DNA of 25,326 nt from a virus (IMGVR_UViG_2565956724_000002), one strand, 5' to 3'; positions 1,997 to 24,080 are shown, counted from the first letter of the stretch. Numbers and translations are program-made. Notes: generated by a model from the sequence alone, not told the origin.

Positions 1997-2013
1997 CAAT
2001 CAATTAGAGCAAT
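1997..2013 (-). promoter_or_regulatory. C1 operator-like site upstream of ref (Op2-like)
   Basis: The reverse complement, ATTGCTCTAATTGATTG, matches the P1 C1 operator consensus ATTGCTCTAATAAATTT at 14 of 17 positions. Confidence 0.6.
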
Positions 2014-2145
2014 GGTAGATATTTTGTTTCTCGCGAATCACATTTTTTCACTTCAGTACCTGTGTGCTATACTCCTTCTTGATTGATTGGATGCGGAATA
2101 CAAACCCGCTCTTTTGTGCAGCCTGGCTCCTTGCCAGGCTTTTTT

Positions 2146-2457
2146 TTATTTCATCATGGAAGCTGTTAACGCTTTGGACCTTGCTGAACTGATTGAAAGG
2201 GCATTGTTTACCTTACCCAGGAGTTCGCCAAATTCCCCCATCACTCTAGTAAGCCCGCGCCGCGCTTCCTCCTCCGTTGCATTCATCACAAAATGTTCAG
2301 CACTCCGCATGCTTTTAACGGGGAACGCAACAGATATCGAGTCGATATCAGGCATCCTATCGCTCAACTTTACGGTGACAATGACAGATGGCGACAGAAT
2401 ATTAGTGCTTACAGACAGCACTACATATTTTCCGTCGATGTTGAAATCCTTTCTCAT
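2146..2457 (-). CDS. Hypothetical protein between cre and ref (cra-like by position)
   Basis: 103-aa minus-strand ORF, same strand as cre and ref. GGTGG sits just upstream of the ATG, and a C1 operator-like site lies at 2474-2490, immediately upstream. Confidence 0.5.
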   Translation of the reverse strand: MRKDFNIDGKYVVLSVSTNILSPSVIVTVKLSDRMPDIDSISVAFPVKSMRSAEHFVMNATEEEARRGLTRVMGEFGELLGKVNNALSISSARSKALTASMMK

Positions 2458-2473
2458 ATGCCACCATAAATAT

Positions 2474-2490
2474 CAAAGAATTAGAGCAAT
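2474..2490 (-). promoter_or_regulatory. C1 operator-like site between cre and the cra-like ORF
   Basis: The reverse complement, ATTGCTCTAATTCTTTG, matches the consensus through the core ATTGCTCTAAT (13 of 17). Confidence 0.5.
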
Positions 2491-2507
2491 CATTTACGCG
2501 TTAATGG

Positions 2508-3539
2508 CTAATTGCCATCTTCCAGCAGGCGCACCATTGCCCCTGTTTCACTATCCAGGTTACGGATATAGTTCATGACAATATTTACGTTGGTCCAGCC
2601 ACCAGCTTGCATGATCTCCGGTATTGAAACTCCGGCACGGGCCATATCTCGCGCGGCTCCGACACGGGCACTGTGTCCAGACCAGGCCAGGTACCTCTGT
2701 CCAGAGTCATCCTTAGCCCCGTAAATCAATCGGTGAGTTGCTTCAAAAATCCCTTCTAGGGCGCGAGTTGATAGCTGGCTGGTGGGTGATGGCGAGGCAA
2801 CACCATTTTTTCTGACCCGGCAAAACAGGTAGTTATTCGGATCATCAGCCACACCAGAGACAGAAATCCATCGCTCGACCAGTTTAGTTACCCCCAGGCT
2901 AAGTGCCTTCTCTACACCTGCGGTGCTAACCAGCGTTTTCGTTCTGCCAATATGGATTAACATTCTCCCACCGTCAGTACGTGAGATATCTTTAACCCTG
3001 ATCCTGGCAATTTCGGCTATACGTAACAGGGTGTTATAAGCAATCCCCAGAAATGCCAGATTACGTATATCCTGGCAGCGATCGCTATTTTCCATGAGTG
3101 AACGAACCTGGTCGAAATCAGTGCGTTCGAACGCTAGTGCCTGTTTTGCACGTTCACCGGCATCAACGTTTTCTTTTCGGATCCGCCGCATAACCAGTGA
3201 AACAGCATTGCTATCACTTGGTCGCGGCAGCCCGGACCGACGATGAAGCATGTTTAGCTGGCCCAAATGTTGCTGGATAGTTTTTACTGCCAGACCGCGC
3301 GCCTGAAGATATAGAAGATAATCGCGAACATCTTCAGGTTCTGCGGGAAACCATTTCCGGTTATTCAACTTGCACCATGCCGCCCACGACCGGCAAACGG
3401 ACAGAAGCATTTTCCAGGTATGCTCAGAAAACGCCTGGCGATCCCTGAACATGTCCATCAGGTTCTTGCGAACCTCATCACTCGTTGCATCGACCGGTAA
3501 TGCAGGCAAATTTTGGTGTACGGTCAGTAAATTGGACAT
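2508..3539 (-). CDS. cre: Cre site-specific tyrosine recombinase, 343 aa
   Basis: The translation MSNLLTVHQNLPALPVDATSDEVRKNLMDMFRDRQAFSEHTWKMLLSVCRSW... is essentially P1 Cre end to end. ATG confirmed at 3539-3537. Confidence 0.97.
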   Translation of the reverse strand: MSNLLTVHQNLPALPVDATSDEVRKNLMDMFRDRQAFSEHTWKMLLSVCRSWAAWCKLNNRKWFPAEPEDVRDYLLYLQARGLAVKTIQQHLGQLNMLHRRSGLPRPSDSNAVSLVMRRIRKENVDAGERAKQALAFERTDFDQVRSLMENSDRCQDIRNLAFLGIAYNTLLRIAEIARIRVKDISRTDGGRMLIHIGRTKTLVSTAGVEKALSLGVTKLVERWISVSGVADDPNNYLFCRVRKNGVASPSPTSQLSTRALEGIFEATHRLIYGAKDDSGQRYLAWSGHSARVGAARDMARAGVSIPEIMQAGGWTNVNIVMNYIRNLDSETGAMVRLLEDGN

Positions 3540-3546
3540 TTAACAC

Positions 3547-3768
3547 TCAGATAATGGTTTTAAGTAAAGTGTACAGGATCGGCTCTGCCTTTACCTGTTT
3601 ATGGTTCTCGTCATAGAAACGCCAGCGACCGCGCGTGCGTTCTATTTTCTCTTCACCGCGCGATAATGACAGTTGGCAACTATCACGATCAAACCCTTTT
3701 GCCCGCCAGTAACCACGGTTTTTCTCAAGCTCAAGATGAGTGGACACTTTAGCAGCTGAATATCCCAT
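3547..3768 (-). CDS. Small hypothetical ORF (73 aa) in the loxP-cre interval
   Basis: ATG preceded by GAGGTG at good spacing. No homology recognised, and it overlaps the expected cre promoter region. Confidence 0.25.
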   Translation of the reverse strand: MGYSAAKVSTHLELEKNRGYWRAKGFDRDSCQLSLSRGEEKIERTRGRWRFYDENHKQVKAEPILYTLLKTII

Positions 3769-3864
3769 TTTTCACCTCTGATTGATTGGTGGTGCTAAGT
3801 GCGCTACGCGAAATCTGGAGTACTAACACTGCCAACATTTCGCAGATTTTACGTAGCGCAACCT

Positions 3865-3939
3865 TGATCAAATGATCAAGTGATCACTATTTGACCTGAT
3901 AAGGTATTGAACTGTATGGATTTACAGGTGAATTGATCA
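3865..3939. promoter_or_regulatory. Cluster of four TGATCA (Dam GATC) hexamers upstream of cre
   Basis: TGATCA at 3865-3870, 3873-3878, 3881-3886 and 3934-3939. This is consistent with the described Dam-sensitive cre promoter region of P1. Confidence 0.6.
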
Positions 3940-3957
3940 TGTTCAATAACCCTTAAG

Positions 3958-3991
3958 ATAACTTCGTATAATGTATGCTATACGAAGTTAT
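3958..3991. other. loxP: loxP recombination site (34 bp)
   Basis: Exact ATAACTTCGTATA-ATGTATGC-TATACGAAGTTAT: two 13-bp inverted repeats around the 8-bp spacer. Confidence 0.98.
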
Positions 3992-4034
3992 CAGGTCAGA
4001 AGAGGAGTTTACGTCCAGCTGCGCACAAAAATCA

Positions 4035-4051
4035 AGAATTATTAGAGCAAT
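4035..4051 (-). promoter_or_regulatory. C1 operator-like site (Op99-like) in immC
   Basis: The reverse complement, ATTGCTCTAATAATTCT, matches the consensus at 15 of 17. Confidence 0.6.
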
Positions 4052-4111
4052 AAATTTTGAGAGAAAAATCCCACTCCACCAGCTAAAAACTGGATTGTTT
4101 TTCATAGTTGT

Positions 4112-4138
4112 TTGACAATTGCTCTAATAAATTATAGT
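4112..4138 (+). promoter_or_regulatory. Putative coi/c1 promoter with an overlapping C1 operator (Op99a-like)
   Basis: TTGACA at 4112-4117 directly abuts ATTGCTCTAATAAATTA (4118-4134, 16 of 17 to consensus), with TATAGT at 4133-4138 as a possible -10. Confidence 0.65.
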
Positions 4139-4372
4139 TTTGCCGCCGTTTCGTAATACGACTTTGGATTCACTATTTAATGTGTCTTCAGCGTTGTAGA
4201 GCGGCTCAGAAGGAAATGAGCAAACAGGGAAACCTTATACAACGGCATTACAGCTATGCATTGCTCATCTTACACACAGCGCAATGTTGTTAGATTACCC
4301 CAGCATGGATCATGGGTGAAACAGTAGGTCAGAGCTTCAGGCTCTGTGTTGTCAATACAGTGAGACATAATT

Positions 4373-4582
4373 ATGGCTTTCATTCAACCAACCATCGACG
4401 ACGTTAGACATTGCTCTAACGCTTTATCTGTAGACCCTGCCGAAACCGACGCTGCCCGCGCCATTGCTGAACACTACTCAAAGATATCCAATCAGGAGTA
4501 CCGCATCACCCAAGACGACCTGGATGACCTCACTGACACAATCGAATATCTCATGGCAACTAACCAGTTAGACTCACAATAA
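4373..4582 (+). CDS. coi: Coi, C1 inactivator, 69 aa
   Basis: 69-aa ORF directly upstream of c1, the length and position of P1 coi. Sequence MAFIQPTIDDVRHCSNALSVDPAETD... Confidence 0.85.
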   Translation: MAFIQPTIDDVRHCSNALSVDPAETDAARAIAEHYSKISNQEYRITQDDLDDLTDTIEYLMATNQLDSQ

Positions 4583-4692
4583 ATGCACTAATAAATCTAT
4601 TATTTTTGTTTGATCCCTCTATAATATAGGTCAGTAATGACCGGTTTTCTCAGCCGGGCGTTATTGACCATGTCAATTCTGGAGGAGGATCA

Positions 4693-5544
4693 ATGATAAA
4701 TTATGTCTACGGCGAACAACTGTACCAGGAGTTCGTCAGCTTCAGGGATCTCTTTCTAAAAAAAGCTGTTGCACGCGCCCAACACGTTGATACAGCCAGC
4801 GACGGTCGTCCTGTACGCCCGGTTGTCGTTCTACCGTTCAAAGAAACTGACAGCATTCAGGCTGAAATTGATAAATGGACTTTAATGGCGCGGGAACTGG
4901 AACAGTACCCAGACCTCAATATCCCAAAGACTATTTTATATCCAGTGCCTAACATCCTTCGCGGTGTGCGTAAGGTTACAACTTATCAGACAGAAGCTGT
5001 GAACAGCGTCAACATGACCGCTGGCCGCATTATTCATCTGATTGATAAGGACATTCGCATCCAAAAAAGCGCGGGGATCAATGAGCACAGTGCGAAATAC
5101 ATAGAGAACCTGGAAGCAACAAAAGAGCTAATGAAGCAGTACCCGGAGGATGAAAAATTCCGTATGCGCGTACACGGCTTTAGCGAAACAATGCTGCGCG
5201 TCCACTACATTTCCAGTAGCCCTAACTACAATGATGGTAAATCAGTTAGTTACCATGTGCCACTGTGTGGCGTGTTTATCTGCGATGAAACTCTCCGTGA
5301 TGGAATTATCATCAACGGTGAATTCGAAAAAGCAAAATTTAGCCTTTATGACTCCATAGAACCGATCATCTGCGACCGCTGGCCGCAAGCAAAAATATAT
5401 CGCCTGGCAGATATTGAAAATGTAAAAAAACAAATTGCCATCACTCGCGAAGAGAAAAAGGTTAAGTCAGCCGCATCAGTTACGCGCAGCCGTAAAACCA
5501 AGAAGGGGCAGCCAGTAAACGACAACCCCGAAAGCGCGCAATAA
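4693..5544 (+). CDS. c1: C1 repressor of lysis, 283 aa
   Basis: MINYVYGEQLYQEFVSFRDLFLKKAVARAQ... matches P1 C1 in sequence and length. Strong RBS GGAGGAGG upstream of the ATG at 4693. Confidence 0.95.
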   Translation: MINYVYGEQLYQEFVSFRDLFLKKAVARAQHVDTASDGRPVRPVVVLPFKETDSIQAEIDKWTLMARELEQYPDLNIPKTILYPVPNILRGVRKVTTYQTEAVNSVNMTAGRIIHLIDKDIRIQKSAGINEHSAKYIENLEATKELMKQYPEDEKFRMRVHGFSETMLRVHYISSSPNYNDGKSVSYHVPLCGVFICDETLRDGIIINGEFEKAKFSLYDSIEPIICDRWPQAKIYRLADIENVKKQIAITREEKKVKSAASVTRSRKTKKGQPVNDNPESAQ

Positions 5545-5549
5545 ATTAT

Positions 5550-5567: not shown

Positions 5568-5576
5568 ATTCTTCCA

Positions 5577-6695
5577 TTATTCAGCCGCCACCGGTTTTAA
5601 CAAGCCAGCATCGAGCAGTTTACGCGTCAACCACTGCTGGCCTTTACCCGTTAATTGAGGCGTCAACCGTATCTGGTAGCCATCTTCATCATCCAGCACC
5701 ACTTCTTTCACCGTGAAATACCCCGCGTTGATGTACTGCTGGAACGGCACATTTTTACGTCCACCGGACGCTATCAGGATGCCGTTCTCCCGTAACCAGA
5801 CAAACAGCGCGTTTTGCTTAAGTCCAACAACCTTTGCAAAATTCCCAATCAGGATCCCTTTAGCTACTGATACCCGGTCGGCAAAATCGACTTTAGGAGC
5901 GGCGGCCACCAGCTGCTGATTTAGCTGGTGGGCTTTCTGTTCCAGAAGTTGCTTTTGTTCAGCCAGTTCGGCAGCCAGGCGTAGGGCTTCAGGAAGCGTC
6001 TGGGGGATTGCGATCGGTTGCTGTTCTTTTTGTCGGAAGTAGCTGTCTTCCAGTTTTTCAAAGAATGCCCATGCCTGATCGGTTTCGAGCATTTTAGCGT
6101 GGCGGGCTGCGCCGCGTTCTGTCCAGAGGGTGAGTGAGCGAACATTGCGAGCAATTTTTACAGAGTAGTTTAAAGCTACTCTGTGCTTCAACTCGCGCAA
6201 TGATTCTCCTTCAACTTTGAAAAAGTGCTTCCCTTCAACAAAGCGTACTTTGTTCTCATGATGATTTTGGCGAATACGGATTGTTTCTGTCCCATACCCT
6301 CTAGCAAGAGTCTCGGTTGTCACTACACGCACTCCCTGCCATTCCAGAACGGGAATTTCATCAGACTGATTCTGAACAACCACCAGCTCCGATTCCTGAA
6401 CTGAAGGTGCATGAATTTTTTCTGATTTAACGTTAGTTGCTTTCATTCTGTGTGCCTCCTTGCGTGATTCGGCTGCGGCGGTTGCGTAATTCAGATGCCC
6501 CTGTTCGAGCAGGTATTCGCGGATATCAGACAGCAGGATGCGGTGAACTGCGTTCTTGTCCTTTCTCCGGTAAAGTTGTTTGGTGATCATGAAGTAGTTG
6601 GCAATAACGCCCGGTATATCCCTAGTACTGATACAGGCAGTGTGCTGTTCAATTGCCTCGATCATCTCTTCACGGGTAACTAATGACGTTCTCAT
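5577..6695 (-). CDS. Phage antirepressor-like protein (ORF6N/Bro-N-like central region, KilA-C-like C-terminus), 372 aa
   Basis: The central segment VLEWQGVRVVTTETLARGYGTETIRIRQNHHENKVRFVEGKHFFKVEGESL and the C-terminal segment ...LFVWLRENGILIASGGRKNVPFQQYINAGYFTVKEV... resemble these domain families from memory. The ATG overlaps the upstream ORF's stop (ATGA). Confidence 0.6.
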   Translation of the reverse strand: MRTSLVTREEMIEAIEQHTACISTRDIPGVIANYFMITKQLYRRKDKNAVHRILLSDIREYLLEQGHLNYATAAAESRKEAHRMKATNVKSEKIHAPSVQESELVVVQNQSDEIPVLEWQGVRVVTTETLARGYGTETIRIRQNHHENKVRFVEGKHFFKVEGESLRELKHRVALNYSVKIARNVRSLTLWTERGAARHAKMLETDQAWAFFEKLEDSYFRQKEQQPIAIPQTLPEALRLAAELAEQKQLLEQKAHQLNQQLVAAAPKVDFADRVSVAKGILIGNFAKVVGLKQNALFVWLRENGILIASGGRKNVPFQQYINAGYFTVKEVVLDDEDGYQIRLTPQLTGKGQQWLTRKLLDAGLLKPVAAE

Positions 6696-6913
6696 AGTCC
6701 CTCCTGAGCAGAAGCGTTAACAGGGAGGCACCAGTAACTGAGAGAATTGCGTGAATCAGTGGAAAAACGGGCAGAGAAAATACATGGGGCGTCAGGAAGC
6801 TGAGAATGGGCCTCATCTTCTGTCGGTGCAATAACGAAGTGATAGTGACGTTTTTGGCAGGAGTAAAAGCGCCAGATAAATTCAGGATGAATTGGGGTAG
6901 GGACAGTAGCCAT
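6692..6913 (-). CDS. Small hypothetical protein (73 aa), translationally coupled to the antirepressor-like gene
   Basis: AAAGGAGG lies about 8 nt upstream of the ATG at 6913. The stop overlaps the downstream start by 4 nt. Confidence 0.5.
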   Translation of the reverse strand: MATVPTPIHPEFIWRFYSCQKRHYHFVIAPTEDEAHSQLPDAPCIFSARFSTDSRNSLSYWCLPVNASAQEGL

Positions 6914-7098
6914 AATGGCAGCCTCCTTTGACTAAGTTAAGGAGCTACCGCGTGAGGTCTCAATCTCAATGGCGGTAGCACTGACTGGGTTGAGACTACC
7001 GGCGTCAAAGGGAACCGGCCTGCCTTTCGGCAGCCCAGCCAGCACTACCATTGATTTCGGAGCTAAACGCTACGTATGGCTGTGCGATGGCATGACAC

Positions 7099-7120
7099 AA
7101 AAAAAGACGCTTTCGGCGTC
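7099..7120 (-). terminator. Intrinsic terminator, minus strand (pacB 3' end and/or attenuator in the leader of the downstream operon)
   Basis: Stem GACGC / GCGTC (7106-7110, 7116-7120) with loop CGAAA on the minus strand, followed by U7 (plus-strand A7 at 7099-7105). Confidence 0.6.
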
Positions 7121-7244
7121 TGTGTCGCCTTTGACATTATCCGGGGTCTCAATCCCGGCACCCGTTTTAATGAGGTGCCTGATAAGCATAAACCGAAAAT
7201 GCCTCAAGGCGCAAGAGGTCAGGTTCAATGTAACATCGGCAGTC

Positions 7245-7261
7245 AAAAAACACAATTTATT
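7245..7261 (-). promoter_or_regulatory. C1 operator-like site just downstream of the pacB stop
   Basis: The reverse complement, CTTGCTCTAATAAATTG, matches the consensus at 15 of 17. Confidence 0.6.
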
Positions 7262-8463
7262 AGAGCAAGTGTTTATTCATTAAGCCATGCCAGAGCTTCA
7301 TCAACCTGCGCTTCGTCTTCGACGCTAAGCACTTCGTCCTGGGGAACATAATCCGCCAGCATAGCGAAACAATATGTATCCCAATGGTCTGGTGAGTGCA
7401 GGTTGAGTTTTTTCTTCATATCCTCCTTACTCATCACCTTCCATTGACCTGCGGAGTTAATCCCTACAGGGATTTTCGACGCTTCCTCAATAGTTTCATT
7501 ACCCTTATCCAGTCTCATACGACCAGATTTTACGGCCTCTGCGGCTTGAACGTTGGCATAAGCACGTTTATCAAAGTACAGGCTCTTATCTTCACGGCTA
7601 TGCATCTTTTTACCCCAGCGTATACGCTGTACGGTAATACCATAATACTCGTACATCAGATCCGCCGTTGCTTTACCCAGGCCATCGCCGTCTATCGCTA
7701 TGGTGATATTGGGGAATCGCTCAGGATTACATTCTGCGAAAATTTTGGCGGCAAGCTGCGTTTCTGTAACGTCTGTGTATTCCAGCATTCGATAGTTGAT
7801 TACACGGCGTTTATTTCGCTGGCCGGACACCATCATGATATTGATAAAGGACTTATCCCGTCCTGTACCACCAGCAACGTCCACACATGCAAGCCAGCCC
7901 CATCCTTTGGCAATCTTGACTTTCCGCCGCGTCGCACGTTCAACCTCATCACGTCCAAGAAGGAAGCCGTCCTGTAATTTAGGGAATAGGCCGCGTACCT
8001 TAATCATGTACATAGGGTTATCACGCCCGCCGTACTCCGCCAGCTTCATTTTGATAAATTCTGACGTTACCAGCGGTGATTCCTCACTGTTAAGCGTGAT
8101 CGCCGTATAAACGCCATCTGGGTTACCAGGACGCTTGGCCAGTTTATGGTGAGTATCGTAGAAATAGCCGCTTGGGCGTGTAGGCTGTGACAGTAATAAG
8201 ATGCGGTTATCCTGTCCGGTAAGAGCACCGGTGATGATACCGAAAGCTCTATCACTGACACCGGAGGCTTCATCGATAATATACAGAAGATGATCTGCGT
8301 GTTCACCGGCGAGAACTTCTTCACTTCCCAGACGAAAGCCCTTCGGTACTACAGTCCATACACCTTTACCAGTAGACTGGCCCCCTGAATCTCCAGACAA
8401 CCAGTATCACTTATTTAAGTGATAGTCTTAATACTAGTTTTTAGACTAGTCATTGGAGAGCAG

Positions 8464-8829
8464 ATGATTGATGTCTTAGGACCGGAGAAACGCAGACGGC
8501 GTACCACACAGGAAAAGATCGCAATTGTTCAGCAGAGTTTTGAACCGGGGATGACGGTCTCCCTCGTTGCCCGGCAACATGGTGTAGCAGCCAGCCAGTT
8601 ATTTCTCTGGCGTAAGCAATACCAGGAAGGAAGTCTTACTGCTGTCGCCGCCGGAGAACAGGTTGTTCCTGCCTCTGAACTTGCTGCCGCCATGAAGCAG
8701 ATTAAAGAACTCCAGCGCCTGCTCGGCAAGAAAACGATGGAAAATGAACTCCTCAAAGAAGCCGTTGAATATGGACGGGCAAAAAAGTGGATAGCGCACG
8801 CGCCCTTATTGCCCGGGGATGGGGAGTAA
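8464..8829 (+). CDS. insC: IS2 OrfA (InsC)
   Basis: [56 protein letters not shown]... Confidence 0.93.
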
Positions 8830-9692
8830 GCTTAGTCAGCCGTTGTCTCCGGGTGTCGCGTGCGCAGTTGCACGTCATTCTCAGACGAACCGATGACTGG
8901 ATGGATGGCCGCCGCAGTCGTCACACTGATGATACGGATGTGCTTCTCCGTATACACCATGTTATCGGAGAGCTGCCCACGTATGGTTATCGTCGGGTAT
9001 GGGCGCTGCTTCGCAGACAGGCAGAACTTGATGGTATGCCTGCGATCAATGCCAAACGTGTTTACCGGATCATGCGCCAGAATGCGCTGTTGCTTGAGCG
9101 AAAACCTGCTGTACCGCCATCGAAACGGGCACATACAGGCAGAGTGGCTGTGAAAGAAAGTAATCAGCGATGGTGCTCTGACGGGTTCGAGTTCCGCTGT
9201 GATAACGGAGAAAAACTGCGAGTCACGTTCGCGCTGGACTGCTGTGACCGTGAGGCACTGCACTGGGCGGTCACTACGGGCGGCTTCAACAGTGAAACAG
9301 TACAGGACGTCATGCTGGGAGCGGTGGAACGCCGCTTCGGCAACGAGCTTCCGGCGTCTCCAGTAGAGTGGCTGACGGATAATGGTTCATGCTACCGGGC
9401 TAATGAAACACGGCAGTTTGCCCGGATGTTGGGGCTTGAACCGAAGAGCACGGCGGTGCGGAGTCCGGAGAGTAACGGCATAGCAGAGAGCTTCGTGAAA
9501 ACGATAAAGCGTGACTACATCAGTGTCATGCCCAAACCAGACGGGTTAACGGCAGCAAAGAACCTTGCAGAGGCGTTCGAGCATTATAACGAATGGCATC
9601 CGCATAGTGCACTGGGTTATCGCTCGCCACGGGAATATCTACGGCAGCAAGCCAGTAATGGGTTAAGTGATAACAGGTGTCTGGAAATATAG
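8787..9692 (+). CDS. insD: IS2 OrfB (InsD) transposase
   Basis: [34 protein letters not shown]... contains a DDE-type integrase core and overlaps insC in the usual IS3-family arrangement. Confidence 0.93.
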
Positions 9693-10092
9693 GGGCAAAT
9701 CCAACCAGTAACCTCATAGAAAGCGGTTTCTGTCAGAACAAAATAATCAGCAAGCCATGGAAAACGGCTGGTGGCAGTAGCCCAGTTTATCTTGATGTAC
9801 TTGAATATACCGGTCATTACCTGCTGAATTTTGTTCGCAACGATAATGGCGCGGGCACCGGGATACATGATTATGAACAACATGATCATGATAGAAGTCA
9901 TGTCTGATTTCCCGGTACCGTGACCAGACGAAACAGATGTCTTGCTACCCTGTTCCTGCACAGACTCAATAATCAGATCCTGCTGCCAGGTAGGTGTTTT
10001 GCCGAACAAAACATCAGCGGCCGCAATCCAGTCATAACGATATAGCGCCACCAGCTCGCGCCAACGTGGATCCGTTACGCAACTTCTGGCCA

Positions 10093-10694
10093 TTAATCAT
10101 CATCCCCGTATAGCTTGCGGGTAACTTCTTCGTCTTCCTCCTCGTCTTCGTCCAGGTCTTGTTCCAGCCATGGGTCGTTTGATACACCTTCAGTATCAAC
10201 ATCTCCATAACCGCCTGTATCAACGATATCGGCGATTTCTTCCCTACGCTGCTCAATCCACAATGCGGCATCGGCGCGGCGGTTGGCGGCCCGTTCTCGC
10301 GCAACTTTGTCCAGATCTTCAAGAGAAGGGCCACCGACGGCTGTTTGCCTTTCCTCATCATCGGTATTGGTCTTAGGAGCACGCAGATCGGCTTTGATTT
10401 GCTCCAGCATCAGGGGCGGCACTTTCCCGCCATGCGCCTCGATGAATTCAGCTGCTTCCAGCACTGACCAGTTATTTTCACGCTTTCGTTCGTACTGTCA
10501 TCAATCAAAACAGACGAATACTTAGACACAGCGATAGCTTTTAAGCGCAGATAAACATCGCGCTTATCGACATCCAGATGCGGGTATTCCTTTTCAAGAA
10601 TTGCTGCGAGTTCTTTCGCTGATAGAAGAGATTTAGTGCGGATCATGTAATTCGCAATCTCGTACGATGTTATTCGTGAGTGATTTATTTCCAT
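10093..10694 (-). pseudogene. Small terminase-like gene immediately upstream of pacB, split across two frames (frameshift)
   Basis: One ORF (ATG at 10694, stop at 10410) has an HTH-like N-terminal part; a second, in another frame (open from 10497 to the stop at 10093), has an acidic tail DEDEEEDEE. They overlap by about 90 nt, and the final stop overlaps the pacB ATG (TAATG). Confidence 0.4.
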
Positions 10695-10794
10695 GAAGTG
10701 GCGTCCCTGCCAGTTAAGTAACATCCTGTCACCTACTGATTAGCCCATGTCAACTAATCAACGTGGAATATAATACCATCGATTAAAGAAATAG

Positions 10795-10811
10795 CAATAC
10801 ATTAGAGCAAT
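10795..10811 (-). promoter_or_regulatory. C1 operator-like site upstream of the small terminase-like gene
   Basis: The reverse complement, ATTGCTCTAATGTATTG, has the core ATTGCTCTAAT (14 of 17). Confidence 0.4.
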
Positions 10812-10812
10812 T

Positions 10813-11856
10813 TTATCTAACGCTCGACGAGTAACTTGTGATAGCGCCGACTCCAAGCGCGTAATCAAAGAACAATCGTTGATGCATCGCCAGCCTACCG
10901 TGCGTCTTCTCCCAATTATCGCGGTCACGCTCAATATCACGCTGGCATGACTGGCACAGAGGAATTGCGTAAATGTCATGCGCGCATAATCGACTATGAC
11001 GAACGATATAAGGCGTAATGTGAGCGCCAGCTCCCGCAGCTCCACAGCCACAGCATGGACGGGAAGCCACAAAGTCCATGTACTCGGGCAATTTTAGCGA
11101 TTGAAGTTTTGGTATTTTGAAATGCGCCATACCTGGGTCGGAGTCAACATCCACAGGGCATACTTTTGCACGCATCGGCGCGGCGCGTTCTTCCATCATC
11201 TGAACATATGCTGTAGCGCGATCGTCATACGGGCGAATATCCGCCTCTTTCAGAGGTCCGCTATCCTGCGGAGCAGCCTTCATCTTATTTATTGATATGC
11301 GGCAGACTTCTTCCGGCATCAGGTGCATCATGTTACGCATGAAAGCCCACCAGCACAGCTCCTGAATACTTAAATCATGGCTATCTGAAAGGCCCATTTC
11401 CTGACGGGCGACATCCAGTATCCAGTTAACGCGATTATTGTGCAGCGTTTCTTTCAGCTCATTAAAACCACGCATCCGGTAATGGTTATCGTGATGCCAG
11501 CACAACAACACCGCGCTATTGTCTCGTTCAGCGTGGACAATATGGTTGTCACACCAGCTACGATCTGCGGCCTGGCATTGCCCCTCTTTCCTGCGCAACC
11601 ACGCCACCAGCGCGTCAATTCCACCAATACGGCGAAACAGTTCATCGCTGTTAAAAAACGGCTGCAACGCCTCATTTGTTGCTATAGTTTGCTCGGAAGC
11701 AACGAGGCCGTCGTCCATGTGCTCGATTAACTCACGCGGCACCGGCTCCATAATAAATTTACGGCCAGCCTCCACCAGCTTTCTGACCTCCTGATCCACT
11801 TTGAACGTGGCGAGGCCAAGTTCTTTCTGTACAAAGGGAGTAATTACGGCTTTCAC
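10813..11856 (-). CDS. Cys/His-rich hypothetical protein (347 aa) with HNH-like motifs, upstream of the terminase genes
   Basis: GTG start with RBS AAAGGTG. Motifs [22 protein letters not shown] and CCGCG...HSRLCAHD...PLCQSC. It is not P1 PacA as I recall it, and no TGATCA pac-type cluster lies in this region. Confidence 0.45.
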
Positions 11857-11883
11857 ATCACACCTTTAATCACTGATTGGGCT

Positions 11884-12063: not shown

Positions 12064-12067
12064 TAAT

Positions 12068-13463: not shown

Positions 13464-13518
13464 GGTGATGTTGCCAACTTACTGATTTAGTGTATGATGG
13501 TGTTTTTGAGGTGCTCCA

Positions 13519-14216: not shown

Positions 14217-15424
14217 GTTGGAGTCATTACCCGAATGATGGTTGCCCATACATCAAAGGACTGGTTAACCGGCAGAGCGATGTCAAAGGTGTCGGTCGCA
14301 AGAGTACGCCAGATCATGATGCGAAGACGCAGCATATCCTGTTCATGAGACAGGTATTCCTTCAGGGTGCGGAACTGTAGGGAACCCAGGTCCAGACCAA
14401 ATTCACGCTGTGCTTCATACGCCGCCTGTACCGTGTGCTCAGCCGCGATAACGAACTGGCTTGGGAACAGGGTGTATTTCTTCATTTCGTGGTTGATCAG
14501 CGGGATCAGCTCAGGAGCGGCTTCAATATTGATTTCCGTCTCAATTGCGATCTCAGTGCCTTTATCCGGCGCTTTGGAGAACGACAGGGAAATCTGACCA
14601 ATGTTGTAGTTCAGAGAGCAGGTAACAGTGATTTGCTCACCAGCAGCATTAGTAAACGAGTGAAGTAGGCTGCCGGAACCGTTATCAACAACAGACTTAA
14701 TACGGTTAACGTAGATGTTAGTGCGACCTTTTCGGATTGGTACATTCTGGCCTTCGAAGTCTTCCATCTTGAAGGTTGCGGTTTTGCTGGTGCCATCGGA
14801 GCTTGCCACCAGCACATAGCGGCGGCGTAACTGGCTGTACACACCGACGGATTGCATGTCCAGAACATCACCAGCAGCATAAGAACCAAAAGAGGAACCT
14901 GCCACGTTAAAGACTTCATAGATGTCGGACTGGTCACGCGTAACCGGAATGAAGGTACACGCATCAGCGGTAGCTGCCCCCAACTGAACAGGCAGGATCA
15001 TCGCGAGGAATAAAGGCAGACGCATAACACCGTCAGAAACGCTCATCATCTCTGCTGCGACGGATTCCAGCATCGCTTTATTAGTGGCATCCATGCTATT
15101 GCGGGTGGACTCAATCAGGCAGTTTTCCAGCGTCTGGTGGCAGGAGGCCAGAATTTCCGGACGCGGCATAGATTTATGTGCTGCGGCGTAGTCAGCCAGT
15201 GCACTTGCCCACGCGGTAGCAATTTGAGCGGTGGCATTATCAGAGATACCCGCAAAAATTGGGTCTTTACGTGCAGCTTCAAGGATAGATGCGGCACGCG
15301 CGGCATCATCTTTGATGAATTGGTTATCAGTACCGAACTGTGCTGTACTTGCCCAGCCAAGAACGGCTTTAGAGCGTTTTGCGATATCTGCAATACGATT
15401 CTGGTATTCGCGTAAGTTACTCAA
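14210..15424 (-). pseudogene. Capsid-like structural protein gene (P1 gene 23-like by position next to par), with its 3' end lost at the IS1 junction
   Basis: Probable TTG start at 15424 with RBS AAGGAAG. The last ~6 codons and the stop lie inside the IS1 terminus. The identity is inferred from position and composition only. Confidence 0.35.
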
Positions 15425-15679: not shown

Positions 15680-16645
15680 TTATTCCCCAGCAGACATTTT
15701 CCCAATGATTTTTTTTATTGCTTCGTCAATTTCAGTTTGCACTTCAGACGGGAGTCTGGAGAACTCGTAGGCGACAACCCGTTTTTTCGGATCGGACTTC
15801 TTTCGAGCATATTGGCGACGGTCAGAGAAGTCTCGCAGCTTCTCAACCACCACAGATTTAACCGGCGCGGGCTTCAGGCTTTTGCTTTCCGCTTTGAAGA
15901 TAGCCAGTATCTTCGCTTTATCCTCTTTCGCGCCCTCAGTCTCTGCAATTCGTTCGCGCACCGTATCAACCAGCTCTTCAATAGGCACGCTTTTAGCGTT
16001 GGCATCCTCGGAGATCTGGAGCAGTAACTGGTAATCTGGCAGGGCGAGATCGCTGGCAACAGGGAAGACAGCAATCATCTCATCCGGCACCGCTGCCGCC
16101 TGGAACGCGCGCGTAACTTTAGCCTTTGAAATGTTCTCAGCGCGGGCGATCTCTTCTTTGGTCATGCTCTTACCATACATAACCTCGAAGCGTTTACCCA
16201 GTTCGCGCAGGGTGTGTTCGCGGGCTGTCTGGATATCAATGGCCAGCTGGCGTGCATCCGCCAGGCTGATCTCATCTTTCGTCACCAGAATCTCAAATTT
16301 CGTTTCATTGAAGATACACGCAGCGCGGCGACGTGATCCGTCCAATACCTCAATGCGCTCCCCAACCATACGACCGATAGCCGGGAAGAACTGTTGCAAT
16401 TTAATGGTGCGGGAAATATCGCTTACCGACTCAGGGGTGAGCAGAGACTGATCGCGGCCGTTAACTGCCGGGTCAACGAACGTGCGCGACTCAATCTCAC
16501 CACTCAGCACAACGGTAAGCAAAAATTTAGCCTGGCGGCCAGATTTTAGGGTAAAGGTTTTGGTGCCTTCACTGCCTTCAAGCATGCGAGCAAACTCGGA
16601 GCTATTCTTGCCCAGCACTCGTCCACGGGAAACTATTTTTTTCAT
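15680..16645 (-). CDS. parB: ParB partition protein (P1/P7 family, divergent from P1)
   Basis: Conserved ...RTFVDPAVNGRDQSLLTP...QQFFPAIG...ILDGSRRRAA..., immediately downstream of parA and overlapping it by 4 nt. Confidence 0.85.
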   Translation of the reverse strand: MKKIVSRGRVLGKNSSEFARMLEGSEGTKTFTLKSGRQAKFLLTVVLSGEIESRTFVDPAVNGRDQSLLTPESVSDISRTIKLQQFFPAIGRMVGERIEVLDGSRRRAACIFNETKFEILVTKDEISLADARQLAIDIQTAREHTLRELGKRFEVMYGKSMTKEEIARAENISKAKVTRAFQAAAVPDEMIAVFPVASDLALPDYQLLLQISEDANAKSVPIEELVDTVRERIAETEGAKEDKAKILAIFKAESKSLKPAPVKSVVVEKLRDFSDRRQYARKKSDPKKRVVAYEFSRLPSEVQTEIDEAIKKIIGKMSAGE

Positions 16646-17853
16646 GCCGCCTCACCCCTAACAAACTCAATTCGATCAAACACAGCCTTAGTGAAACGCT
16701 CGGCCTCGGTTCGTGCCTTCTTCAGCGCCTCTGCACTGCCTGGATACGATTGCGGGTTGGCACTGATTACGGTGTCGAAAGACTCGCCGCATCGCTCAAA
16801 TCCATCCAGACGAGGCAGAGAAGAGTCCAGAATGTTGCTGGCGTAAACCTCACGCGCAAGGCTGTGTGATGTCTCGTGATCGCGCTTGCCGGTCATCTTC
16901 GACATAAAACCAATGCTGGCGCTTAAACGCGGTTCTACGCCTTCCTCCTCCAGTTGCTCCAGCATTTCTGGCAGACGGGTGAGATATTTCAGTGTTGAGT
17001 GGAAGTCAACCTGGGCTGGTGGGGTAGGGGTAAGCAGCAAATCGCTGGCCGCCAGACCGTTGAGCAGGAACGGATCCAGGTGTGGACCGGTATCAATAAA
17101 GATAAAGTCATAATCATCCGCAACACGATCAATGATATTGCGTCGAAGGATTTCGTACTGATTTTGTCCGGGAAGATGCTCTTCAACCAGCTCTTTCCAT
17201 TGGCTGGCAACAAAGCCATCGTCGATAGAGGCTGGAATCACGTCTACGCCAGGAACGATGGTCGGACGAATCACCTCTTTGCGTAGCGTCTCCGCGTCCA
17301 AGTCGTTCAGCATCGCCTGCGCGGCGGTTTCCAGGATGGAACCAATACTGTGAGTATGGTCGAGGAACATTGTGCTGGATGCCTGAGGGTCAAGGTCAAT
17401 TACCAGAATGCGCAGATCGTGACGCAGTAAATCCTGATGCACACGCAGAGCGTGCGCCAACGTGACTGTGGAAACCGTTTTGGATACGCCACCCTTCAGG
17501 TTTACGACAAAAATAACGTAAGGCGATTTGTGAATGTCGCGATATTTTGGGATCTTACGGTGGGCATAGATATCAATGACGTTCTGGATGGTCAGCGCGT
17601 ACTGTTCAACGTTACCGACCTGTTTCTTGTTGAACTGGTACCCATCATCTTCCATCTCTTTGATGGCCTGCTCCACAATGCGGCGGCTCAGCTTCGGCAA
17701 CTTTGCCACAGCGTTACGAGTGAACGTCTGATAATACTCGGTCTGATTGAACTCTTTGCGCTGATCTTCAATATCCTGACTCATGGCCTTAAGTAATGCG
17801 CTTGCACGAAGAGCTATGGTGCCGACACCGCCGTAATCGCGTTTCATCATCAT
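16642..17853 (-). CDS. parA: ParA partition ATPase (type Ia, with N-terminal HTH extension)
   Basis: Walker A VVNLKGGVSKTVSTVTLAH, and the C-terminal ...LPRLDGFERCGESFDTVISANP...KAVFDRIEF is almost as in P1 ParA. The N-terminus differs from P1. Confidence 0.9.
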   Translation of the reverse strand: MMMKRDYGGVGTIALRASALLKAMSQDIEDQRKEFNQTEYYQTFTRNAVAKLPKLSRRIVEQAIKEMEDDGYQFNKKQVGNVEQYALTIQNVIDIYAHRKIPKYRDIHKSPYVIFVVNLKGGVSKTVSTVTLAHALRVHQDLLRHDLRILVIDLDPQASSTMFLDHTHSIGSILETAAQAMLNDLDAETLRKEVIRPTIVPGVDVIPASIDDGFVASQWKELVEEHLPGQNQYEILRRNIIDRVADDYDFIFIDTGPHLDPFLLNGLAASDLLLTPTPPAQVDFHSTLKYLTRLPEMLEQLEEEGVEPRLSASIGFMSKMTGKRDHETSHSLAREVYASNILDSSLPRLDGFERCGESFDTVISANPQSYPGSAEALKKARTEAERFTKAVFDRIEFVRGEAA

Positions 17854-19817: not shown

Positions 19818-19828
19818 AAAAATCCCTT

Positions 19829-20161
19829 TTAGTTACCTCTGATAGCGCGGTTGTAATCATTAACGTTGCGATTCTTCCTGTTAATCCCCATCAGCATCGT
19901 TTCTGTATCGAGGATATACGCTGGCAGATCATCAAAATATTCATTGCTAAACTCTGGCATCCTGCACATAAATGCACTTTTGGGGGCAGGGTGGTTAACC
20001 TTTGTCGGCGTCGGCGTTAAATTCGCTGATCGACTGCCGGAGCAACCGCTGAGTGTCAGCAGGAATGCGCTGGCGAACATTACCCGCCGCAACCAGTTGT
20101 TTCTGAACTTCAGCTTTTCGTTCCATTTGCCTGTCAGCATATTTGGCTTGTTCTGATTCAT
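19829..20161 (-). CDS. Putative lipoprotein (mlp-like)
   Basis: Signal peptide with lipobox: ...FASAFLLTLSGCSGS. Confidence 0.55.
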   Translation of the reverse strand: MNQNKPNMLTGKWNEKLKFRNNWLRRVMFASAFLLTLSGCSGSRSANLTPTPTKVNHPAPKSAFMCRMPEFSNEYFDDLPAYILDTETMLMGINRKNRNVNDYNRAIRGN

Positions 20162-20417
20162 TTTTCACTTCCTGGCTGTGAAAATGTTGCTCTGCTTTGT
20201 TCATCGTCTCAATGGTCTGGTTAAGATCCATTATTGACTTATCACGTTCCTTAACAGCCTGATCAAGACTGCCAATTTTCTCCATGGCTTGCTTTAGCTG
20301 ATGACGTTCCCATGCAAACCCAGCACCAACAAGTGCGCAAATCAGAACAAGAACACCAGTAGCAGCAAGTTTCTCCTTCAAAGACAAAGCTGTTTTTAAC
20401 GTAGAAAAGAATGACAT
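19995..20417 (-). CDS. Putative membrane-anchored or periplasmic coiled-coil protein (ppfA-like)
   Basis: N-terminal hydrophobic segment LAATGVLVLICALVGAGFAW followed by a charged, helical region. The start is taken at MSFFSTLK. It overlaps the 5' end of the lipoprotein ORF, so one of the two starts is uncertain. Confidence 0.45.
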   Translation of the reverse strand: MSFFSTLKTALSLKEKLAATGVLVLICALVGAGFAWERHQLKQAMEKIGSLDQAVKERDKSIMDLNQTIETMNKAEQHFHSQEVKNESEQAKYADRQMERKAEVQKQLVAAGNVRQRIPADTQRLLRQSISEFNADADKG

Positions 20418-21183
20418 GTCTTCCTCCTGAAGAAAAATTATCAATGAAGTCCTTTGTTACTGTGCCGCTTTGTTTAATTCATCAATAACAGAATCAGGAA
20501 CCAAAGCGGCAACTGCGCTGGCTGTGCTGACCTTATTTGCTGATGCTTCCGCAAGCGCGGTACCGATAGCATGGTTATAAGCAGTTATGGCTACGTTGGC
20601 GCTTTCATTCGCTCGTTCATACTGCTGTTGTAACGCAGTTGTGGGCGCTGTTGTCTGGTTGAAAACAACCCCAAACTGTTCAGTTGCTACTTTCAGAGAT
20701 TCAATTTGCTCTTCTGTTAGTGCTGGTGGGGGAGTGGCAGTGCCGCCGCCTGAACCAGAGCCTGACGAGCTTCCTGAGCCAGTGTTAAGGGTCTGGTTAA
20801 TCTCCCCCATAGCAGCGACTAAACTTGATGTATTAAGCGCGTTAACAGCGTCCTCAAGCGATTTAGTAATATTCACATCACCAATGGCAATAGAGATCGG
20901 CAGTTCTGAAACTTCTCGCTCATTAGCACGGCAGTAAACATCCCAACCAATATCGAGTTGAAGCAGCATTGACAGATCTGCATAACCAGCCAACAGGTCC
21001 GCGTGCTTAGTTGCCAGTTCTCCAATGTTCGTTAAGCCGGTTGTGGTTGTTCTTATCGTTGAAACATAGCTGGTAATAGTGTCGGGATAGACAATTGTAT
21101 GTAAGCGTCGTCTGAGTACCGTCTGGTCCCGAATCCAGGATCCTGTAACTTAAGCACCCACTTATTTTGCAGGTGGACACCTC

Positions 21184-21567
21184 ATGCGCGCTAAAGAAAG
21201 ACTTCCCCGGAAACACTATTCCCCTGAATTCAAAATGGAACTGGTCAGGCTGGCTCTTGAAGAAGAAGGCAGTATTGCCGCACTGGCCCGGAAACATGAC
21301 GTCAATGATAACCTGCTCTTTAAATGGATAAGGCTCTGGCAGCGTGAAGGGCGGGTCTGTCGGCCCCGAAAAAACTCATCGTCGCTTCCTGCCCTGATAC
21401 CCGTGCAGCTTCAGGCGGGCTCTTCTCTCCCAACCTTCGAACTACCATCCTGCTCTCCTCCCGCTACCTGCCACATAAAATGTCGGGGAGGAGAAATAAC
21501 ACTGACTCATCCCTCTGCTGAACTCATGAGCACTGTCCTGCGCGAACTGATGCGGGGGCCGGTATGA
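21184..21567 (+). CDS. tnpA: IS66-family accessory protein TnpA (orf1)
   Basis: First ORF of the IS66-type triplet; HTH-like N-terminus. Confidence 0.75.
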   Translation: MRAKERLPRKHYSPEFKMELVRLALEEEGSIAALARKHDVNDNLLFKWIRLWQREGRVCRPRKNSSSLPALIPVQLQAGSSLPTFELPSCSPPATCHIKCRGGEITLTHPSAELMSTVLRELMRGPV

Positions 21568-21911
21568 TAAATCTTCCCGCAGGCACAAAAATCTGGCTGG
21601 TTGCCGGTATCACCGATATGCGCAACGGCTTCAATGGCCTCGCCGCAAAGGTGCAGACCGCGCTGAAAGATGACCCGATGTCCGGCCACGTCTTCATCTT
21701 CCGGGGACGCAGCGGCAGTCAGGTAAAACTGCTCTGGTCCACCGGCGATGGTCTGTGCCTGCTGACAAAGCGACTGGAACGTGGTCGCTTCGCCTGGCCC
21801 TCAGCCCGCGATGGCAAAGTGTTCCTGACGCCGGCGCAACTGGCGATGCTGATGGAAGGTATCGACTGGCGACAGCCAAAGCGGTTACTGACATCCCTGA
21901 CCATGTTGTAG
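21564..21911 (+). CDS. tnpB: IS66-family TnpB (orf2)
   Basis: MINLPAGTKIWLVAGITDMRNGFNGLAAKVQTALKDDPMSGHVFIFRGRSGSQVKLLWS... is the typical IS66 Orf2 sequence. Overlaps tnpA by 4 nt. Confidence 0.85.
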   Translation: MINLPAGTKIWLVAGITDMRNGFNGLAAKVQTALKDDPMSGHVFIFRGRSGSQVKLLWSTGDGLCLLTKRLERGRFAWPSARDGKVFLTPAQLAMLMEGIDWRQPKRLLTSLTML

Positions 21912-21960
21912 CGCTCTTTATCCTGGTTGTCGCAGAATAAGCCTGGTAAAATACAGGCTT

Positions 21961-23496
21961 ATGAACGATACCTCTTCTGACGACATCCTTCTGCTGAAAC
22001 AGCGCCTGGCCGAACAGGAAGCGTTGATCCACGCCCTGCAGGAAAAGCTGAGCAACCGGGAACGCGAAATAGACCATCTGCAGGCGCAACTGGATAAGCT
22101 GCGCCGGATGAACTTCGGCAGTCGTTCCGAAAAGGTATCCCGCCGTATCGCGCAAATGGAAGCTGACCTGAACCTGCTGCAGCAGGAAAGCGATACGCTG
22201 ACCGGCCGGGTGGATGACCCGGCAGTGCAGCGCCCGCTGCGTCAGACCCGCACCCGCAAACCGTTCCCTGAGTCACTCCCACGGGATGAGAAGCGGCTGC
22301 TGCCGACTGAGCCGTGTTGCCCGGAGTGCGGTGGTTCGCTGAGTTACCTGGGTGAGGATGCCGCCGAACAGCTGGAGCTGATGCGCAGCGCCTTCCGGGT
22401 TATCCGGACAGTCCGTGAAAAGCATGCCTGCCGTCGGTGCGATCGCATCGTTCAGGCCCCGGCTCCTTCGCGCCCCATCGAACGGGGGATCGCCGGACCG
22501 GGGCTGCTGGCCCGAGTGCTGACCTCAAAGTATGCAGAGCACACACCGCTGTATCGCCAGTCGGAGATCTATGCCCGCCAGGGTGTAGTGTTGAGTCGTT
22601 CTGTACTGTCGGGCTGGGTGGATGCGTGTTGTCGTCTGCTGGCACCGCTGGATGAAGCCCTTCAGCACTATGTCCTGACCGACGGCAAACTCCATGCTGA
22701 CGATACGCCTGTCCCGGTGCTGTTGCCGGGCAATAAGAAGACGAAGACCGGGCGCTTATGGACGTACGTTCGAGACGACCGCAACGCCGGATCAGCGCTG
22801 GCCCCCGCAGTGTGGTTCGCTTACAGCCCGGACAGAAAAGGTATCCACCCTCAGACCCATCTTGCAGGCTTCAGTGGCGTACTGCAGGCTGATGCCTACG
22901 CCGGGTTCAACGAGCTCTACCGCGACGGCCATATAAAGGAAGCCGCGTGCTGGGCCCATGCCCGCCGAAAAATCCACGATGTTCACGTCCGTACCCCGTC
23001 AGTCCTGACGGAGGAGGCGCTGAAACGGATCGGCGAGCTGTATGCCATCGAGTCGGAGATCAGAGGTAAAAGAGCAGAGGAACGGCAGGCAGTCCGGCAC
23101 CAAAAAGTGCTGCCGCTGCTGGCGTCACTGGAGGGGTGGCTGCGGGAGAAACAGAAAACCCTCTCAAGGCACTCAGAACTGGCGAAGGCGTTCGGGTATG
23201 CGCTGAACCAGTGGCCGGCGCTGATCCGCTATGCAGAAGATGGCTGGGTGGAGGTGGATAATAACATTGCCGAAAACGCCCTACGACGGGTCAGTCTGGG
23301 GAGAAAAAACTGGCTGTTCTTCGGCTCGGATCATGGTGGTGAGCGCGGTGCGTCACTGTACAGTCTTATCGGGACGTGCAAATTAAACGGCGTGGATCCG
23401 GAACGCTATCTGCATTATGTACTTGATGTCATCGCCGACTGGCCTGTGAACCGGGTGGGTGCTCTGCTCCCGTGGCGGGTTACTCTGCCTGCCTGA
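21961..23496 (+). CDS. tnpC: IS66-family transposase TnpC (511 aa)
   Basis: N-terminal coiled coil, a CxxC...CxxC zinc motif (CCPECG...CRRCD) and a DDE region, as in IS66 transposases. Confidence 0.85.
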   Translation: MNDTSSDDILLLKQRLAEQEALIHALQEKLSNREREIDHLQAQLDKLRRMNFGSRSEKVSRRIAQMEADLNLLQQESDTLTGRVDDPAVQRPLRQTRTRKPFPESLPRDEKRLLPTEPCCPECGGSLSYLGEDAAEQLELMRSAFRVIRTVREKHACRRCDRIVQAPAPSRPIERGIAGPGLLARVLTSKYAEHTPLYRQSEIYARQGVVLSRSVLSGWVDACCRLLAPLDEALQHYVLTDGKLHADDTPVPVLLPGNKKTKTGRLWTYVRDDRNAGSALAPAVWFAYSPDRKGIHPQTHLAGFSGVLQADAYAGFNELYRDGHIKEAACWAHARRKIHDVHVRTPSVLTEEALKRIGELYAIESEIRGKRAEERQAVRHQKVLPLLASLEGWLREKQKTLSRHSELAKAFGYALNQWPALIRYAEDGWVEVDNNIAENALRRVSLGRKNWLFFGSDHGGERGASLYSLIGTCKLNGVDPERYLHYVLDVIADWPVNRVGALLPWRVTLPA

Positions 23497-23698
23497 CCAG
23501 CTTCACTTCGTCAATACGGTTCTCACTGCACGCTTACAATTGTATCCAGAATTAATCCGGTCAATTCTTCTGCAAGCAGTTTTGCTGTGTTAGCACTGTT
23601 TCGTGCCGATGTTATGGCACCAGGTGTTTTCATCCCACCGGCGGCGGCCAATTTTTTATATGCGGATAACTGGTAGTCTTTTTCCAGCATGATATCTC

Positions 23699-23983
23699 CT
23701 AACTTACCTGAACCAGGCCGTCTCCGGACGCTACGGTAGATCCGCATGAAACAGGGTCACCAACGCATACGATCCCTTTACCATTGACGGTAAACCATGC
23801 CCTGGTTGATATAGCTTGCCCACCGTGCGTACTGTTTCCATCGGTATGCTGTGCATATTGCTTACCATCAACTAACACTTCGACTCCGTTGACTTTAAGT
23901 AGTGGTTCACTCTCTACAGGAGGCCTGGATGGGAATCCTCCGTGCCCCGAAAAAATGCTGTCTTTTGTTGCAATACTTGCCAC
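23699..23983 (-). CDS. Small protein with PAAR-like motifs (upfC-like by position)
   Basis: ...KVNGVEVLVDGKQYAQHTDGNSTHGGQAIS...VNGKGIVCVGDPVSCGSTVASG resembles repeated PAAR-type motifs. It sits immediately upstream of the IS66-disrupted gene on the same strand. Confidence 0.35.
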   Translation of the reverse strand: MASIATKDSIFSGHGGFPSRPPVESEPLLKVNGVEVLVDGKQYAQHTDGNSTHGGQAISTRAWFTVNGKGIVCVGDPVSCGSTVASGDGLVQVS

Positions 23984-24063
23984 GTCATCACCAATTATTT
24001 GCTCTGGTTTTCGTTATTTTAACTTAGGTTACTTGTGGTCTACATGGCGTCAACTATTGCATA

Positions 24064-24080
24064 ATTGCTCTAATAAATAT
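24064..24080 (+). promoter_or_regulatory. C1 operator-like site upstream of the uhr/hrdC-like genes
   Basis: ATTGCTCTAATAAATAT matches the consensus at 16 of 17. Confidence 0.6.

Follow-up and report, generated by a model that had tools for sequence, protein, structure and literature searches.

We examined a 25,326-nucleotide (nt) stretch of viral DNA, IMGVR_UViG_2565956724_000002 (hereafter the window), for operators of C1, the master repressor of phage P1. The 17-bp motifs dispersed across this stretch very probably constitute the C1 operator set of a P1-like (Punavirus) phage-plasmid, as judged from their sequences and positions. The published targets of C1 are asymmetric 17-bp operators, dispersed over the genome and with the consensus ATTGCTCTAATAAATTT, and RepL and Lpa are under its control; it is antagonized by Coi and Ant1/2, assisted by Lxc and also modulated by c4 (PMC8546580). 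By sequence comparison, the window contains eleven predicted sites. For nine of them the orthologous operator has been mapped in P1, and two are additional, one upstream of c8 and one at the head of an antirepressor cassette (Table 1). The window encodes its own C1, which is identical to P1 C1.100 at 281 of 283 residues, and the operator specificity should therefore carry over.

The window was searched with the consensus allowing up to three mismatches. This yielded seven matches (1997-2013, 4035-4051, 4118-4134, 4582-4598, 7253-7269, 10795-10811 and 24064-24080) versus 0.04 expected. An exact 11-nt core, ATTGCTCTAAT, occurs six times in the window versus 0.03 expected. From the P1 record AF234172 we also collected the 20 monovalent protein_bind features labelled 'phage repressor C1'. 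An independent position weight matrix (PWM) was trained on just the 11 P1 operators without an orthologue in the window, to avoid circularity, and its background was taken from 1000 dinucleotide shuffles of the window. It returned nine sites at 13 bits or more against a shuffle mean of 0.38 (maximum 4), eight at 15 bits or more against 0.13, and six at 20 bits or more against 0.006. The original prediction had put forward a comparison of this kind as its own challenge, and its operators came through it. We considered whether AT-rich intergenic DNA could have produced the 17-mers by chance. A lone 13/17 match is expected about 0.6 times per 25 kb on both strands by a binomial estimate, and the weakest sites, Oc1c and Oc1b, score at background level here and are likewise weak in P1. 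However, the excess of consensus matches, PWM sites and exact cores over expectation refutes coincidence, as does the letter identity of the sites to curated P1 operators, and we consider the probability of a chance origin negligible. Three weaker PWM matches of 7-9 bits (1984-2000, 20147-20163 and 15074-15090) were tried as extra operators and rejected, since about four matches of at least 8 bits are expected by chance; the first of them is the ATTGCTATAAT -10 repeat of P2ref.

The P1-homologous segments of the window should contain nine P1 operators, and all of them have been kept. Eight of these 17-mers are identical to the named P1 operators letter for letter and the ninth, Oc1b, differs by one base. 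They lie next to the same genes and annotated promoters as in P1, whose cognate C1 is 99% identical; the difference is that the downstream targets lpa, mat and hrdC are truncated here. The Omat orthologue overlaps the ref stop codon upstream of mat, and the Oref orthologue precedes ATTGCTATAAT, the location of the P2ref -10 box, in front of an intact ref gene (186/186 amino acids aligned). Oc1e is located at P4cre and faces lox, cra and cre. Oc1d occupies the spacer of P1coi (former P99d) directly 3' of a TTGACA at 4112-4117 and controls imcA-imcB-coi-c1. Odmt abuts the Pdmt -35 box upstream of uhr-hrdC(-dmt). Oc1c, within coi, was recognized by orthology only because its PWM score is weak. 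In the comparison with P1, substitutions were found at 1 of 147 operator columns versus 60 of 1325 other intergenic columns (Poisson P ~0.01) and 188 of 7127 coding columns (P ~0.10 versus operator columns). The lower rate at operator columns suggests constraint, for which it is modest evidence. As a side observation, AF234172 annotates Omat as an 18-nt feature at 2628-2645 on the minus strand, while the 17-mer that matches, CATGCACTAATAAATAT, is read from the plus strand (2628-2644); the entry looks like a small annotation error.

These assignments bear on the original prediction in several ways. Five of the seven 17-mers it listed, under a heading of at least eight, are letter-identical to Oref, Oc1e, Oc1d, Olpa and Odmt, which supports their identification as C1 operators; their coordinates were exact. 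It was also correct in seeing a P99-type promoter at 4118, which is Op99d at P1coi, except that the TTGACA abuts the operator instead of overlapping it. Several of its gene assignments have to be replaced. The site at 4035-4051, ascribed to coi/c1, is Oc1e and looks toward P4cre, cra and cre. The gene at 2474, called cra-like, is c8, and cra itself lies at 3768-3547, upstream of cre. The site at 10795, placed in a terminase region, is Olpa, which controls the late-promoter activator gene lpa and not the terminase genes. Four operators, Oc1a (4582-4598), Oc1b (4593-4609), Oc1c (4410-4426) and Omat (1331-1347), were absent from that list.

A number of observations weigh against reading these sites as a working C1 operator set. 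By the independent PWM, Olpa (13.3 bits), Oc1c (8.8) and the c8 site (15.6) each score no higher than 16.7 bits, the 95th percentile of the maximum score over the window in the shuffles. Simple inheritance could account for the nine orthologous sites, given an identity to P1 of 96-98% over most of the window. A generic sigma-70 consensus scan called no promoter at any of these sites, the known P1 promoters included. The corepressor gene lxc is located outside the window, several of the target genes are pseudogenes here, and C1 binding and repression in this element are extrapolated from P1 experiments in the literature. Regarding the promoters, the sequences at the sites are identical or nearly identical to the annotated P1 promoters P2ref, P4cre, P1coi, Pc1, Plpa and Pdmt. 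Since the generic scan was uninformative, promoter overlap was assigned by orthology to the P1 annotation, and the promoters at the c8 and cassette sites are putative.

The state of the target genes was determined by tblastn of P1 proteins against the window. The genes cra, cre, c8, ref, imcA, imcB, coi, c1, phd and doc are intact, as are pdcA, pdcB, repA, upfA, mlp, ppfA, upfC and uhr. Others have been damaged by deletion or by insertion sequences (IS). The mat gene is frameshifted and cut by IS5. Only residues 1-78 of 150 are left of Lpa (gene at 10724-10410; Pfam BPP1_LPA 1-64 of 131) and only residues 265-397 of PacA, and P1 90224-91320, with LPpac and the pac site, is deleted here. This 1.1-kb deletion (10492-10494) fuses lpa codon 78 to pacA codon 265. 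In addition, pacB is split by an IS3-family element (8373-9705), gp23 is cut at amino acid 398 by IS1, which also truncates an hsdM-like gene (12846-13490), and upfB is split by IS66. A second IS3-family element, starting at ~24984 and running to 25326, cuts hrdC after amino acid 185, and this hrdC/IS3 junction is common to several E. coli plasmids at 100% identity. Since lpa, pacA and pacB are intact in RCS47, the lesions in the window are secondary. A plasmid in this condition can hardly make phage particles.

Such decay raises the possibility that the 17-mers are inherited fossils, which persist by recent P1 ancestry after the loss of lytic capacity and no longer form a working regulon. The broken genes lpa, pacA, pacB, mat, gp23, upfB and hrdC are in keeping with this explanation, and the near identity of the backbone to P1 left little time for 17-bp sites to decay. 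On the other hand, c1, coi, imcA/B, ref, c8, cra, cre, uhr and the full IsrK-C4-icd-ant cassette are intact, and operator columns are less substituted than other intergenic columns. Moreover, unrepressed ref, icd and ant would harm the host (PMC4713147), so that C1 control is still needed. We therefore regard the fossil explanation as quite improbable and favor an operator set that is probably still in use for part of its targets. Since lpa, mat and hrdC are truncated, C1 control is a vestige at lpa, mat and the distal dmt operon. It is still meaningful at ref, c8, cre/cra, coi-c1 and icd-ant, with immC and the antirepressor circuitry intact. The C1 regulon map of the original prediction is thus supported with corrected gene assignments, and it is in part a relic.

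The first of the two additional sites is located in the interval from the cre stop codon to c8, and 17 nt separate its end from the c8 ATG. The c8 gene (2457-2146) encodes a protein 93% identical to P1 C8. This site had been listed in the original prediction and it stands at 13/17; the search with up to three mismatches missed it, and it was recovered by the PWM and by its exact core. Its P1 counterpart at 1485-1501 reads ATTGCTATAATTATTTG, likewise in P7, and no operator is annotated there in either record. We compared the region upstream of c8 in 80 IMG/VR loci encoding C8 relatives, which comprise 37 distinct upstream variants. Across these variants the mean column identity is 0.99 in the core versus 0.71 in the 17 nt that separate the site from the cre stop, and the exact core ATTGCTCTAAT is kept in 74 of the 80 loci. 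The commonest 17-mers at this position score 19-23 bits, which equals or exceeds the accepted operators Olpa and Orlf. Judged on sequence conservation, this pattern is the phylogenetic footprint of a functional element with an operator core. C1 bound here would occlude an embedded promoter or block read-through from cre.

It is conceivable that 2474-2490 is instead a c8 promoter or translation-initiation element, as TGCTCTAAT and TGCTATAAT resemble an extended -10 box. P1 and P7 carry ATTGCTATAAT at this position, a perfect TGnTATAAT, their curated records annotate no operator, and the 19 nt between the site and the ATG are conserved as well (0.945). However, in the 74 relatives with ATTGCTCTAAT a C replaces the key A at the second -10 position, which gives an exact operator core and a poor -10 box, and the PWM scores are those of accepted operators. 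The two roles are also compatible, since operators commonly overlap -10 boxes. We consider it unlikely that the element is a promoter or initiation signal and not an operator, and we retain its designation as a candidate C1 operator. The ATTGCTATAAT sequence upstream of c8 was observed in P1 (AF234172) and in P7 (AF503408 1485-1501; IMG/VR locus L166, 136-152). It results from a C7A change in the core that creates a perfect extended -10 box, TGCTATAAT, and is seen in only 2 of the 80 natural relatives. The resemblance of this variant to an extended -10 box may be why the site escaped being called as an operator. C7A may be a shared variant of the P1/P7 lineage that alters c8 control.

The second additional site, at 7253-7269, is located 4 nt after the pacB stop codon. 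The original prediction had correctly assigned it to an antirepressor operon, with coordinates (7245-7261) that were 8 nt off. It is not part of the P1 or P7 annotation and aligns to P1 Oc4. Alignment to P1 Oc4/P51a shows conservation of the operator and of the T-run after it, an island between diverged flanks. A P51a-like -35 box, TTGTGT, overlaps the 3' end of the operator and is followed by a -10 box, TACATT, both placed by homology. The site heads an extra immI-type cassette and is, by analogy, the functional counterpart of P1 Oc4/Op51. The cassette has the part order of the P1/P7 immI region (Oc4/Op51 - P51a/b - a1 b1 - c4 - a2 b2 - icd - ant1/2), likewise with a C1 operator over the first promoter, a2/b2 over the icd ribosome-binding site, and icd and ant overlapping as expected for translational coupling. 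Its a (UUGAGAC) and b (GUCAAAGG) boxes are complementary to two loops of the C4 RNA (a' and b'). Each box occurs twice: one copy is in the IsrK-like leader and the other covers the ribosome-binding site of icd, where the Shine-Dalgarno sequence before the ATG at 6913 is overlapped by b2. The corresponding boxes in P1 are UUGACAG and GUUAGUG, and Ant is just 56% identical. Since the boxes differ from those of P1, a different antisense specificity is predicted. P1 immI is located between sim and kilA/repL, and the cassette of the window has pacB and c1 as neighbors instead; we therefore class it as an immI-like cassette at a second locus, distinct from immI proper.

Venturini et al. (2019, PMC6906374) described an 'ant' insertion at this position, between pacB and c1, in RCS47, pTZ20_1P and further P1-like phage-plasmids, and were silent on its control. 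RCS47 has the same cassette at the same position, with a leader that is 98% identical and the operator TTTGCTCTAATAAATTG directly after the pacB stop. Its record and the published descriptions give just 'ant' and hypothetical open reading frames, leaving the operator, the IsrK-like leader, the C4 RNA and icd unannotated. We further examined 74 IMG/VR loci encoding Ant relatives of 64-100% identity. A C1-type operator in + orientation was found 551-576 nt upstream of ant in 70 of them. In lambdoid Shiga toxin (Stx) phages, APSE and D6, the cassette is homologous (68-90% identity) from the IsrK element onward only, and these copies are without a P1-type C1 operator front end. A search of phage D6 for a P1-type operator before its homologous cassette found none, with a best PWM score of 9, and D6 has no C1 homologue. 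The operator front end thus tracks the repressor.

The operator-IsrK-C4-icd-ant cassette was observed in at least five backbone contexts of P1-like genomes (IMG/VR loci L087-L165, for example L095, L115, L122 and L140). In 44 loci its neighbors are pacB and c1, and elsewhere it is found next to mat, dbn/gp5, lyz or kilA; several IMG/VR contigs carry two cassettes. When the contexts are compared, the 5' edge of the operator is exactly the point from which they are homologous, suggesting that operators may double as module junctions. Cassettes outside the pacB-c1 position have an inverted, bivalent-looking operator pair, ATTGCTCTAATAAATTT-G-ATTTATTAGAGCAAAT.

We propose the following scheme for the regulon. 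C1 would bind each asymmetric 17-bp site, on or beside sigma-70 promoters. It would thereby shut off ref, cra/cre transcription from P4cre, the imcA-imcB-coi-c1 operon together with c1 itself (autoregulation), the antirepressor operon, lpa and the uhr-hrdC-dmt operon, and probably c8. According to published work, C1 control extends to the genes ref, ssb, dmt, kilA and ban (PMC4713147). Inactivation of C1 by Coi or Ant would relieve repression, Coi being under LexA control and Ant being restrained by the C4 antisense RNA. The LexA box at P2coi, the counterpart of the LexA site at P1 46-65, and loxP are conserved beside Oc1e/Oc1d, which indicates that SOS input to the coi-c1 operon is retained.

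The layout of the window was mapped by blastn against AF234172. The window is a mosaic P1-like phage-plasmid whose megablast neighbors include many E. coli plasmids besides P1, P7, RCS47 and SJ46. The best database record in that search spans 70% of it, and a match of the whole window to one known plasmid was rejected. Compared with P1, the backbone is rearranged, and the immC/lpa block is joined via IS1 to the par/rep block. ParB and ParA are 43% and 58% identical to their P1 counterparts, while the adjacent repA is 100% identical (window 15680-17853). This divergence beside an unchanged repA points to a swapped partition module, and so to a different par specificity, on a P1 replicon.

Table 1. 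Predicted C1 operators and other features of the window. Agreement with the consensus is given as matching positions of 17; where two PWM scores (bits) are shown, the second is from the independent matrix.
Feature	Position	Strand	Sequence	Remarks
Omat (former Op2b)	1331-1347	-	CATGCACTAATAAATAT	identical to P1 2628-2644; PWM 21.1/20.9
Oref (former Op2a)	1997-2013	-	ATTGCTCTAATTGATTG	14/17; identical to P1 1962-1978
Operator-like site upstream of c8	2474-2490	-	ATTGCTCTAATTCTTTG	PWM 19.1/15.6; exact 11-nt core
Oc1e (former Op99e)	4035-4051	-	ATTGCTCTAATAATTCT	15/17; identical to P1 94724-94740; PWM 25.6/25.8
Oc1d (former Op99d)	4118-4134	+	ATTGCTCTAATAAATTA	16/17; identical to P1 94641-94657; PWM 26.6/26.1
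Oc1c (former Op99c)	4410-4426	+	ATTGCTCTAACGCTTTA	within coi; identical to P1 94349-94365; PWM 14.8/8.8
Oc1ab, bivalent (former Op99ab)	4582-4609			at Pc1
Oc1a	4582-4598	+	AATGCACTAATAAATCT	identical to P1
Oc1b	4593-4609	-	ACAAAAATAATAGATTT	one change from P1 ACGAAAATAATAGATTT
Predicted cassette operator	7253-7269	-	CTTGCTCTAATAAATTG	15/17; PWM 23.2/20.9
Olpa (former Op94)	10795-10811	-	ATTGCTCTAATGTATTG	14/17; identical to P1 89904-89920; overlaps Plpa -35
Odmt (former Op68)	24064-24080	+	ATTGCTCTAATAAATAT	16/17; identical to P1 65145-65161
c1	4693-5544	+		repressor gene; product 100% identical to RCS47 C1
coi	4373-4582	+		69/69 amino acids aligned, 97% identity
LexA box	3912-3927	+	CTGTATGGATTTACAG	at P2coi promoter
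loxP	3960-3993			intact; near LexA box and Oc1e/Oc1d
immI-type cassette	5577-7178	-		between pacB and c1
IsrK-like leader	7178-7100	-		contains a1/b1; Rfam isrK, 60 bits
C4 antisense RNA	7055-6968	-		Rfam RF01695, 75.4 bits (gathering score 45)
icd-like gene	6913-6692	-		80% identical to P1 Icd; overlaps ant
ant	6695-5577	-		Pfam ORF6N and ANT/KilAC domains; 56% identical to P1 Ant1
IS5-like	1-649			blastn map
mat', ref, c8, cre, cra, lox	645-3974			P1 3331..1, reverse-complemented
lox, imcA, imcB, coi, c1	3975-5543			P1 94800..93232, reverse-complemented
P1 ant/icd homology	5587-6886			70-81% identity; placed between c1 and pacB
pacB halves	7273-8373 and 9705-10494			interrupted by 1.3-kb IS3-family element with rve transposase
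lpa', pdcB, pdcA, doc, phd	10492-12745			P1 90223..87970
IS1	13464-14232			
gp23', parS, diverged parB/parA, incA-repA-oriR, upfA-upfB, upfC, uhr, hrdC'				3' of IS1
IS66 element	21100-23536			inside upfB

Nine of the eleven sites are textbook P1 operators and the other two are new members of the same family. The annotation of P1, which is based on the laboratory phage, seems to miss a family-conserved operator before c8. We tentatively suggest that natural P1-like phage-plasmids have a larger C1 regulon than that annotation indicates, extended by the c8 operator and by mobile cassettes fronted with C1 operators; we regard this as a real possibility and not yet as the probable case. If true, c8, a putative lysogeny-establishment gene, would be under direct C1 control, and the IsrK-C4-icd-ant cassettes would be mobile plug-ins with distinct antisense specificities, sometimes present twice per genome, such that one repressor would face several independently gated antirepressors. 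Judged by its parts, the 'ant' insertion of P1-like plasmids that carry antimicrobial resistance (RCS47, pTZ20_1P and the SJ46 group) is a complete immI module, heteroimmune and wired to C1 by a predicted operator. Both the c8 operator and the cassettes would bear on the decision between maintenance and induction in clinically widespread phage-plasmids, and on which residual functions, such as ref, icd/ant and cre, stay under repressor control in their decayed derivatives.

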